From assembly GCA_944391115.1 (NCBI GenBank), contig CALXSJ010000018.1, forward strand, positions 4,803 through 68,802: a DNA stretch of 64,000 nt, written 5' to 3'. The translations under genes and the position numbers were made by a program. This document shows positions 50,544 through 51,599 of the stretch, piece by piece (within the stretch, counting starts at the first letter, position 1; each line of letters begins with the position of its first letter). The notes under the pieces are model-generated. The model had not been told where the DNA came from. It searched no databases and saw only the letters and a program-made list of their open reading frames with translations. The DNA is from an uncultured Victivallales bacterium (GTDB lineage Bacteria; Verrucomicrobiota; Lentisphaeria; Victivallales; UBA1829).

Positions 50544-51599
50544 ATGACGGGACATCACGCCGACGGGCGGAAACGCGGACTCTTCGGTACAATCCTGGAG
50601 TTCTGCGTATCCCTGTTCCGCAGCCGCCGCGCGCGAACGGCGCGGAAGTTCCGGGAGGCGGTTACAAATCTGCCCGAATTTCTCAACTGCGGCGAAATAC
50701 GGCTTGTGCGCATGACGAATGCGGCGGCGGACCACTACCGGAAGTTCTTCCTCTGGAAAGACCGGGAGCATACCGGAAAGCGCTGGATCGAAGCGCCCGA
50801 CGATGAGCTGAAAGCACTGCAGCGGCGTATTCTCAGGCTGTTTTACCTTCTGGCGCCCTCCCCTTACACACACGGGTTCACCATCGGGCGCGGCATCGTC
50901 AGCAACGCCGGGATCCATACAGGGAAAAAATACGTAATCAAACTGGACCTAAAAGACTTTTTCCCTTCCGTCACGGGAACAATGATCCGGCGCGAGCTGT
51001 GCGATTCCGGCATCCTCACGAAGGAAAACAGCAGAGAGATGGAAATTCTGCTGAAACTCTGTCTGCTGGAGGACCGTCTCCCGCAGGGAGCGCCGACCAG
51101 CCCCGCGCTTGCGAATCTTGTCTGCCGCAAGCTGGATTTCATTCTGGCGAAATTCGCCCGCCGCCACGGCATGCAATACTCCAGATACGCCGACGACCTT
51201 GCCTTTTCCTGCGATTCGGACGGCTGCTTCCGTCTGATTCCCGTCATCCGGAAAATCATCGGGCAGTACGGATTCCGGGTGAACGACCGGAAAATCAATG
51301 TGCTGAAACGCCATCAGCGGCAAACCGTCACGGGACTTGTCGTCAATCATGCCGGCATGACCTCCGTCCCGCGGAGAAAGCGTATGAAACTCCGCGCCTG
51401 CCTGCACCGGATCGCGACGGGAAAAATGGCTCTGAGCGAAGCCGGCTATGCGAAACTGAAAGGACATGTTTCCCTGATCCGCATGGCAAATCCGCGGCAG
51501 GGACTCTATTTCCGGAAACAGCTTGAAATCATCGAAAAAATGCGCTCCGGCGCTTGCATCCCGGGGAAAGCGCAGTATAATGAGGCGGAAAGGTTTTGA
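50544..51599 (+). CDS. Retron-type reverse transcriptase
   Basis: LKALQRRIL, HGF..GR.IV.NAGIH (NAxxH), KLDLKDFFPSV, LPQGAPTSPALAN, YSRYADD, QTVTGLVVN (VTG); no maturase or endonuclease domain. Confidence 0.92.
   Translation: MTGHHADGRKRGLFGTILEFCVSLFRSRRARTARKFREAVTNLPEFLNCGEIRLVRMTNAAADHYRKFFLWKDREHTGKRWIEAPDDELKALQRRILRLFYLLAPSPYTHGFTIGRGIVSNAGIHTGKKYVIKLDLKDFFPSVTGTMIRRELCDSGILTKENSREMEILLKLCLLEDRLPQGAPTSPALANLVCRKLDFILAKFARRHGMQYSRYADDLAFSCDSDGCFRLIPVIRKIIGQYGFRVNDRKINVLKRHQRQTVTGLVVNHAGMTSVPRRKRMKLRACLHRIATGKMALSEAGYAKLKGHVSLIRMANPRQGLYFRKQLEIIEKMRSGACIPGKAQYNEAERF
51554..51581 (+). promoter_or_regulatory. Sigma70 promoter embedded in the RT 3' end
   Basis: TTGCAT-16 nt-TATAAT; the same TTGCNN-16 geometry occurs at 23275, 44483 and 49422. 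Confidence 0.7.

Follow-up and report, generated by a model that had tools for sequence, protein, structure and literature searches.

Descriptions of retrons, and most searches for them, assume a unit in which a promoter is followed by msr, msd and the reverse transcriptase (RT) gene. The 64,000-nucleotide (nt) stretch analyzed here, which we call the window (positions 4,803 to 68,802 of contig CALXSJ010000018.1, assembly GCA_944391115.1, from an uncultured Victivallales bacterium), holds a retron-type RT gene whose last codons coincide with promoter-like boxes, with one arm of an inverted repeat and, in the stop codon itself, with a G from which the RT might prime. The original prediction had read these codons as carrying coding, promoter and priming functions together, with a ribosome terminating on the priming site, such that only a short transcript might serve as substrate. 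The question raised by the locus is whether this overlap is an organized feature of the system or something acquired later. We compared the window with its relatives in a set of 11 RT-linked loci from 10 genomes (window included, RT identity down to 54%), and favor, with moderate confidence, a two-part stand-alone retron in which the RT gene comes first and an msr-msd-like RNA gene lies downstream as its own unit, the overlap being secondary. The features on which the argument draws are these:

50544..51599, + strand: retron-type RT gene, an open reading frame (ORF) of 351 amino acids with the motifs NAGIH (NAxxH), YADD and VTG
51554..51559, + strand: −35 box TTGCAT; relatives have TTGACA, TTGACT, TTGAAT, TTGAAA or TTGATT
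51555..51557, + strand: stop-loss site, a TGC (Cys) codon; in 7 related loci the TGA stop of the RT stands here, and 51557 is also the fourth base of the −35 hexamer
51555..51596, + strand: 14-codon read-through tail CIPGKAQYNEAERF, translated in the window lineage only
51576..51581, + strand: −10 box TATAAT, after a 16-nt spacer from the −35 box
51586..51597, + strand: a1, which forms the 5′ arm of the closing stem and has its conserved core at 51588-51597
51598, + strand: candidate priming (branching) G, which follows a1 as the first unpaired base and stands in the middle of the TGA stop at 51597-51599
51603..51621, + strand: stem-loop 1 (helix 2, 100% paired), a nearly invariant 8-base-pair (bp) stem, predicted to be an msr element and likely the RT recognition site
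51626..51644, + strand: stem-loop 2 (helix 3), predicted msr, with 2 compensatory pairs that include a C-G to U-A change in the window
51650..51694, + strand: predicted msd domain, a 4-bp junction stem (51650-51653/51691-51694) around a variable hairpin (51655-51675) and a small hairpin (51676-51688)
51702, + strand: opposing G just 5′ of a2, invariant in 11/11 loci; predicted first template base
51703..51714, + strand: a2, which pairs with a1 as the 3′ arm of the closing stem
51715..51744, + strand: terminator-like, G+C-rich 12-bp hairpin directly after a2, followed by TTTCC here and by a run of 6–7 Ts in relatives

The RT gene and the RNA gene behind it

Judged by its profile matches and motifs, the product of 50544-51599 is a retron-type RT, as had been proposed. 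It contains a Pfam RVT_1 domain (1.6e-19), and retron hidden Markov models gave its best matches: among the PADLOC models, RT_X (2.1e-74, 248 bits) and RT_XIII (1.1e-73, 247 bits) were followed by RT_other (1.8e-68), with the Ec107-like RT model below the first two at 198 bits. The NCBIfam model for the retron St85 RT matched at 5.5e-63 (212.9 bits, under its 235-bit cutoff), and the best solved chain in the PDB was the RT of retron Ec86 (7.7e-37). NAxxH, YADD and VTG were all present in 13 of 13 loci, the window reading NAGIH, YADD and TVTG. RT length varied between 320 and 351 amino acids across loci, with no extra domain; a 626-codon open frame in genome G236 was considered as an N-terminal fusion and rejected, its first start codon lying only at codon 303 of a G+C-rich frame.

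Searches with the RT protein in genomes of the same family and order recovered close homologues. Within the same family, 7 of 60 genomes, including that of the window, had a match at E ≤ 1e-60, and three more genomes from another family carried an RT of 54–55% identity. Metagenomic assemblies contributed contig L036, 97.4% identical to window positions 48544-51753, and contig L038, nearly identical to the locus in genome G017. The public runs carrying the window locus were mostly chicken or bird gut metagenomes.

The same layout was observed downstream of the RT in all 11 RT-linked loci. Each has TTGnnn, a spacer of 16–17 nt and TAnnnT, and the two hexamers are conserved while the spacer is not. 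When three of the relatives were submitted to a promoter scan, this promoter was called in all of them (with 12/12, 11/12 and 9/12 matches), which upholds the placement of a promoter before the RNA. The RNA would extend for some 120–155 nt after the promoter; in the window, transcription is predicted to start at about 51587-51589, from the usual spacing to a −10 box. Past the RNA, the terminator was called by a scan in the relative G017.

The end of the RT ORF, the −35 and −10 boxes, the two 12-nt arms and G51598 in the middle of the stop codon all lie where the original prediction had put them. The arms of the inverted repeat (CGGAAAGGTTTT at 51586-51597 and AAAACCTTTCCG at 51703-51714) are complementary at 12 of 12 positions with 105 nt between them; the last paired base of a1 is T51597, and G51598 faces G51702. 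Folding of the 131-nt stretch gives −52.5 kcal/mol (z = −5.95), a value equaled by none of 200 shuffles. Across the loci, the consensus fold comprises 40 pairs in six helices, of which the closing stem accounts for 10 bp. Paired cells made up 96.9% of the total (11 loci, 40 pairs), compared with 38–54% when partners were slid, and compensatory changes were present in 15 of the 40 pairs, compared with 1–3 for slid partners; 0 of 500 shuffles reached the observed values, although these covariation figures overstate independence because the sequences are related. In helix 1, formed by a1 and a2, 99.1% of cells were paired and two pairs showed compensatory change, and in helices 4–6, which make up the predicted msd, such change affected 11 of 15 pairs. 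Conserved U-G pairs would turn into A-C mismatches if the opposite strand were the RNA; with the orientation of promoter and terminator, they fix the RNA on the + strand. The inverted repeat is thus the a1/a2 closing stem of a conserved structured RNA, and we hold with high confidence that this RNA is a real gene linked to the RT.

Two further observations concern the fold in the window. A second perfect 9-nt complement of a1 (CCTTTCCGC) lies just past the terminator-like hairpin, pairing 51585-51593 with 51743-51751, which means that a1 could pair either with a2 or with 51743-51751, the latter pairing enclosing the hairpin. Within the hairpin at 51654-51675, an apical ATTCTGCGAAT segment is shared by seven same-family relatives; what remains after the deletion in the window is a 9-bp stem without mismatches, capped by a TGC loop. 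The shortened hairpin is common to L036 and to an RT-less copy in genome G002 that is described below, from which it follows that the deletion predates their split.

More distant RT homologues gave a mixed picture. A covariance-model search of 15 loci with RTs of 36–41% identity, which also took in the window and four metagenome loci, produced among the distant loci only a weak match at L015 (14.6 bits, E 0.12), and viral contigs scanned with the stem-loop 1 pattern gave no matches. An inverted-repeat scan of 14 distant loci found 11–14-nt repeats upstream of the RT in L007 and L027, 9–11-nt repeats downstream in some loci, and none in six. The repeats in L007 (at about 1017-1165) and L027 (at about 877-1030), whose RTs are 39–41% identical and belong to the same order, are perfect and lie about 125 nt apart. 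Since an upstream position corresponds to the canonical layout, placement downstream may be peculiar to the RT family of the window.

Priming, alternatives and RT-less copies

We would picture the locus as a chicken-gut Victivallales retron in the reverse of the textbook order, with the RT gene followed by an msr-msd-like non-coding RNA (ncRNA) gene. The ncRNA would be a separate transcription unit, running from a promoter of sigma-70 type, placed right where the RT gene ends, to a hairpin terminator after a2. Its ends would be held together by a1 and a2; the two stem-loops would presumably serve in recognition by the RT (msr), and the variable hairpin domain would presumably be the template (msd). 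By analogy with characterized retrons, the RT would then prime from the 2′-OH of G51598, start copying at G51702 and continue across the variable hairpin. Both Gs, that after a1 and that before a2, were invariant in 11 of 11 RT-linked loci, which sustains the prediction that homologues would keep a G at this position, and the invariant pair matches the "two opposing G residues" in the retron ncRNA consensus drawing of PMC7736814. On position and conservation, G51598 is a reasonable candidate for the priming G. We think it probable that the RNA yields multicopy single-stranded DNA (msDNA); we incline, with less assurance, toward G51598 as the branch.

Several observations weigh against a reading of this kind, some concerning the sample, some the nature of the RNA and some the copy in the window. 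As to the sample, the 11 loci are related and come from one bacterial order, which means that counts over them are not independent, and a covariance-model search of 52 sampled genomes of family f3 found no match though three f3 genomes carry the element (those three may have been unsampled or lost in filtering). The profile matches also leave the retron type of the RT ambiguous, with no more than 20 bits separating the scores of the RT_X, RT_XIII and "other" models.

As to the nature of the RNA, the candidate G stands in the context TTTT-G-ATC (U-G-A) in 11 of 11 loci and not in AGC, the conserved context reported for 15 validated retrons in PMC6868368. An Rfam scan of 49000-53500 returned three matches, all with E values of at least 1.4 and none at 51584-51744. 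These points, along with the lack of an effector at the locus and the existence of retron-related RTs with non-canonical RNA use (type VI retrons, for example), would suit an RNA that is a true partner of the RT without being a classical msDNA template, such as a structured 3′ untranslated region, a small RNA that regulates or binds the RT, or a template primed from a different site or in some other way. We regard this alternative as unlikely, yet the strongest of those we considered. Set against it is the retron ncRNA plan, which PMC8632793 and PMC7736814 give as paired ends, an unpaired conserved G, 5′ stem-loops and a variable hairpin: the a1/a2 stem, the opposing invariant Gs, the 5′ stem-loops and the variable 3′ hairpin of the present RNA reproduce it, and the RT beside it carries retron motifs.

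As to the window copy, a consensus promoter scan of 50300-52000 returned no promoter-like site, which is explained by a −35 hexamer that matches at only 3 of 6 positions. A terminator scan of the window did not call the hairpin at 51715-51744, which has no T run behind it, and the msd hairpin falls about 19 nt short of its length in the seven same-family relatives. With these three features, the window copy may be weaker than those of its relatives. They could even suggest a decaying, non-functional retron that has lost its stop codon, had its promoter weakened and suffered truncation of its msd, all the more when the RT has been deleted in a sister species (G002) and the deleted form co-occurs in the metagenome run X2.

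That deletion belongs to a small set of RNA copies that stand without an RT. In G002 (locus L039, G002:C13, 1330-1530), which belongs to the same genus and whose flank is 94% identical, the equivalent of window positions 50506-51559 has been replaced by five bases, with loss of the RT and the −35 box and retention of the RNA gene. In the RNA copy that remains, a1 differs by a T to C change and the −10 box reads TACAAT. Run X2 contains both forms, the joint of this deletion on a contig at depth 2.8 and the RT-bearing form at depth 9.4; in run X20 the joint is seen as a loose end. In G074 (L054, G074:C48, 1440-1700), an orphan, decayed RNA copy lies beside a large convergent gene at a site where genus-mates carry both RT and RNA; it has no adjoining RT ORF, and its a2, opposing G, stem-loop 2 and small hairpin are altered. 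The third case comes from two fermentation metagenome contigs (L037, 851-1010; L035, 636-795), which share a diverged RNA copy (53 bits) with no RT nearby. Here a C replaces the G after a1, 9 nt are inserted before stem-loop 1, and a good terminator is followed by a convergent Sir2-family gene. We considered the Sir2 gene beside L037 as an effector and set it aside, given its convergent orientation, its match to the general sirtuin family and the absence of an RT nearby.

The core formed by a1, the two Gs and a2, which is invariant in the 11 RT-linked loci, was thus changed in all three RT-less copies (G002, G074 and L035/L037), a pattern that fits an RNA kept only together with its RT; the set is small (n = 3), and the L035/L037 copy might be used by an RT elsewhere in its genome.

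Against decay of the window copy itself, the reading frame of the RT is unbroken and keeps every catalytic motif, the shortened hairpin still forms a perfect 9-bp stem, and a1 and a2 remain complementary at 12 of 12 positions. The two read-through strains, the window and L036, also show a ratio of nonsynonymous to synonymous substitution (dN/dS) of 0.16 (dN 0.015, dS 0.098; 289 codons, the first 62 RT codons being excluded because of an indel there in L036), and by this measure purifying selection on the RT is seen to have continued after the stop was lost. We judge decay to be rather improbable. The L036 indel, at about 2000-2180 of that contig (RT codons 1-62, coverage 1.8), consists of an 18-nt length difference with some 12 residues altered, and could be an assembly error or real.

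Origin of the coding overlap

The position of the RT stop codon differs among the loci. In seven, the RT ends in ...EKMR(x)(x)(A/S)*, its TGA supplying bases 2–4 of the −35 hexamer, 14 codons before the stop of the window, and in the three loci of the other family the TGA stop lies 6–7 nt before a TTGAAA −35 box. Measured from the end of the stop codon to the start of the GGTTTT motif, the distance is −8 nt (an overlap) in the window, +34 to +36 nt in the seven loci and +45 to +47 nt in the other three. Read-through was limited to the window and the 97.4%-identical L036, both of which have TTGCAT.

An assembly error can be excluded for the base responsible, C51557, as L036 shares it and no other letter is seen at the site in the contigs that span it from runs X2, X8 and X19. 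Runs X19 and X20 are labeled RNA-Seq; they were flagged as probably DNA and provided read-length contigs only, and the listing of public runs with the locus names no RNA data set.

A single A to C change, turning TGA into TGC at 51555-51557, is enough to create the 14-codon tail by read-through. The ancestral stop would have been a TGA inside the −35 hexamer, the change from TTGAnn to TTGCAT would have removed it, and translation would have continued to the next in-frame TGA, which contains the conserved G. We consider this stop-loss account very likely to be correct, and the stop codon that holds the candidate G is merely the next in-frame TGA. The tail is untranslated in all 10 homologous loci outside the window lineage, where conservation nevertheless extends to the hexamers, the a1 arm and the G. 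On these comparisons, the overlap of coding, promoter and priming is a secondary accident of one lineage, arising from one stop-loss mutation.

It follows that two parts of the original prediction are not supported. The reading of C-terminal codons with three functions as an organized feature finds no support, given that 10 of 10 homologous loci leave the tail untranslated, and a terminating ribosome could not block the long transcript in 10 of 10 relatives, where the G lies 34–47 nt beyond the stop. As the read-through tail reflects stop loss in one lineage, ribosome occlusion cannot be a property of the system, and the idea is further weakened by engineered transcripts carrying the RT first and the ncRNA second, which make reverse-transcribed DNA (RT-DNA) according to 10.1101/2024.01.25.577267 and PMC6868368, the latter citing yeast constructs. 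A functional overlap, in which a stop codon on the branching G couples termination to priming and only the short transcript is a substrate, can appeal to a physical overlap that is real in the window and L036, to the sole difference between these two in the 42-nt tail (an E to G change that keeps a1/a2 pairing as G-U) and to an RT stop that overlaps the −35 box by three bases in seven relatives, but we consider it very improbable in view of the untranslated yet conserved tail nucleotides elsewhere, the RT-DNA made from engineered transcripts, and a −35 match that was weakened by the very change that created the tail.

Neighboring genes and comparison with known retrons

Setting the overlap aside as secondary, we lean slightly toward the view that these loci represent a natural "inverted" retron family, in which msr-msd forms its own unit, the promoter is nested in the RT stop region, no effector is present and msDNA would be primed from a G outside an AGC context. 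With a promoter so placed, the RT and its template RNA could be expressed separately. The main interest of the locus lies in this family: a natural retron without an effector, with its RNA gene behind the RT and, in most members, a promoter that contains the RT stop. A three-way overlapping code would be striking if true, but the comparative data explain it by a single stop-loss mutation. If a conserved natural family places the RT first and gives the RNA a promoter of its own, searches confined to the region upstream of the RT can miss the template RNA. The loci also offer natural variants that could act as built-in controls when the priming G is mapped, namely stops within the −35 box, stops before it, read-through forms and RT-deleted relics.

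The surroundings of the window RT look like housekeeping genes. Within about 5 kb are genes for CsgG/LpoB-like lipoproteins, a sugar-binding protein, a GntR regulator, a TIM-barrel enzyme and a DUF1559 protein; the gene upstream of the RT encodes a periplasmic sugar-binding protein (Peripla_BP_4, 1.3e-45), and the intergenic space between it and the RT is 69 nt. PADLOC returned no matches on the neighbors in the window. Besides the RT, no ORF was shared across at least five genomic contexts (flanks mostly of 1.5 kb, up to 3 kb or more), an effector elsewhere in the genome being possible. With no neighbor common to these contexts, the cassette appears to stand alone, and the effector of tripartite retron defense systems appears to be missing from the locus within the flanks examined.

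Compared with canonical retrons such as Retron-Eco1 (Ec86), the window shares an RT with NAxxH, YADD and VTG and, as predicted here, an ncRNA with a1/a2 pairing, an unpaired G after a1, msr stem-loops and an msd hairpin. The canonical ncRNA precedes the RT under a shared upstream promoter and has its G in AGC, whereas in the window the RT comes first, the ncRNA has its own promoter at the RT 3′ end, the G lies in UGA and no effector was found. In PMC6868368 the RNA gene is upstream of the RT in one transcript, and in 10.1101/2024.01.25.577267 it is "frequently found immediately upstream"; instead of a single promoter-msr-msd-RT transcript, all 11 loci have the ncRNA downstream with a promoter of its own.

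Types X and XIII, whose RT models were the best PADLOC matches, are set apart by accessory genes. According to PMC7736814, type X has an IHF-like/VHL-beta membrane protein upstream of the RT, and type XIII a winged-helix/SWIM zinc-finger protein, usually with an ARM/HEAT-repeat protein; these defining genes are absent beside the window RT. The same source describes stand-alone (msr-msd)-RT cassettes for RT clades 2 (Ec107-like) and 11. The window resembles these in having two parts and no conserved accessory gene, and differs in that their RNA gene comes first and in the lower score of the Ec107-like model on its RT.

Full-text literature searching gave no account of a natural retron whose ncRNA lies downstream of the RT, which does not establish that none has been described. 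The closest likeness in order is to engineered inverted retron operons, in which the RT is likewise followed by the ncRNA. Those operons are artificial, run from one promoter and have no overlap between stop and promoter, whereas the layout in the window is natural and was found in 11 of 11 loci, making it a compact natural version of the inverted arrangement that engineers already prefer.

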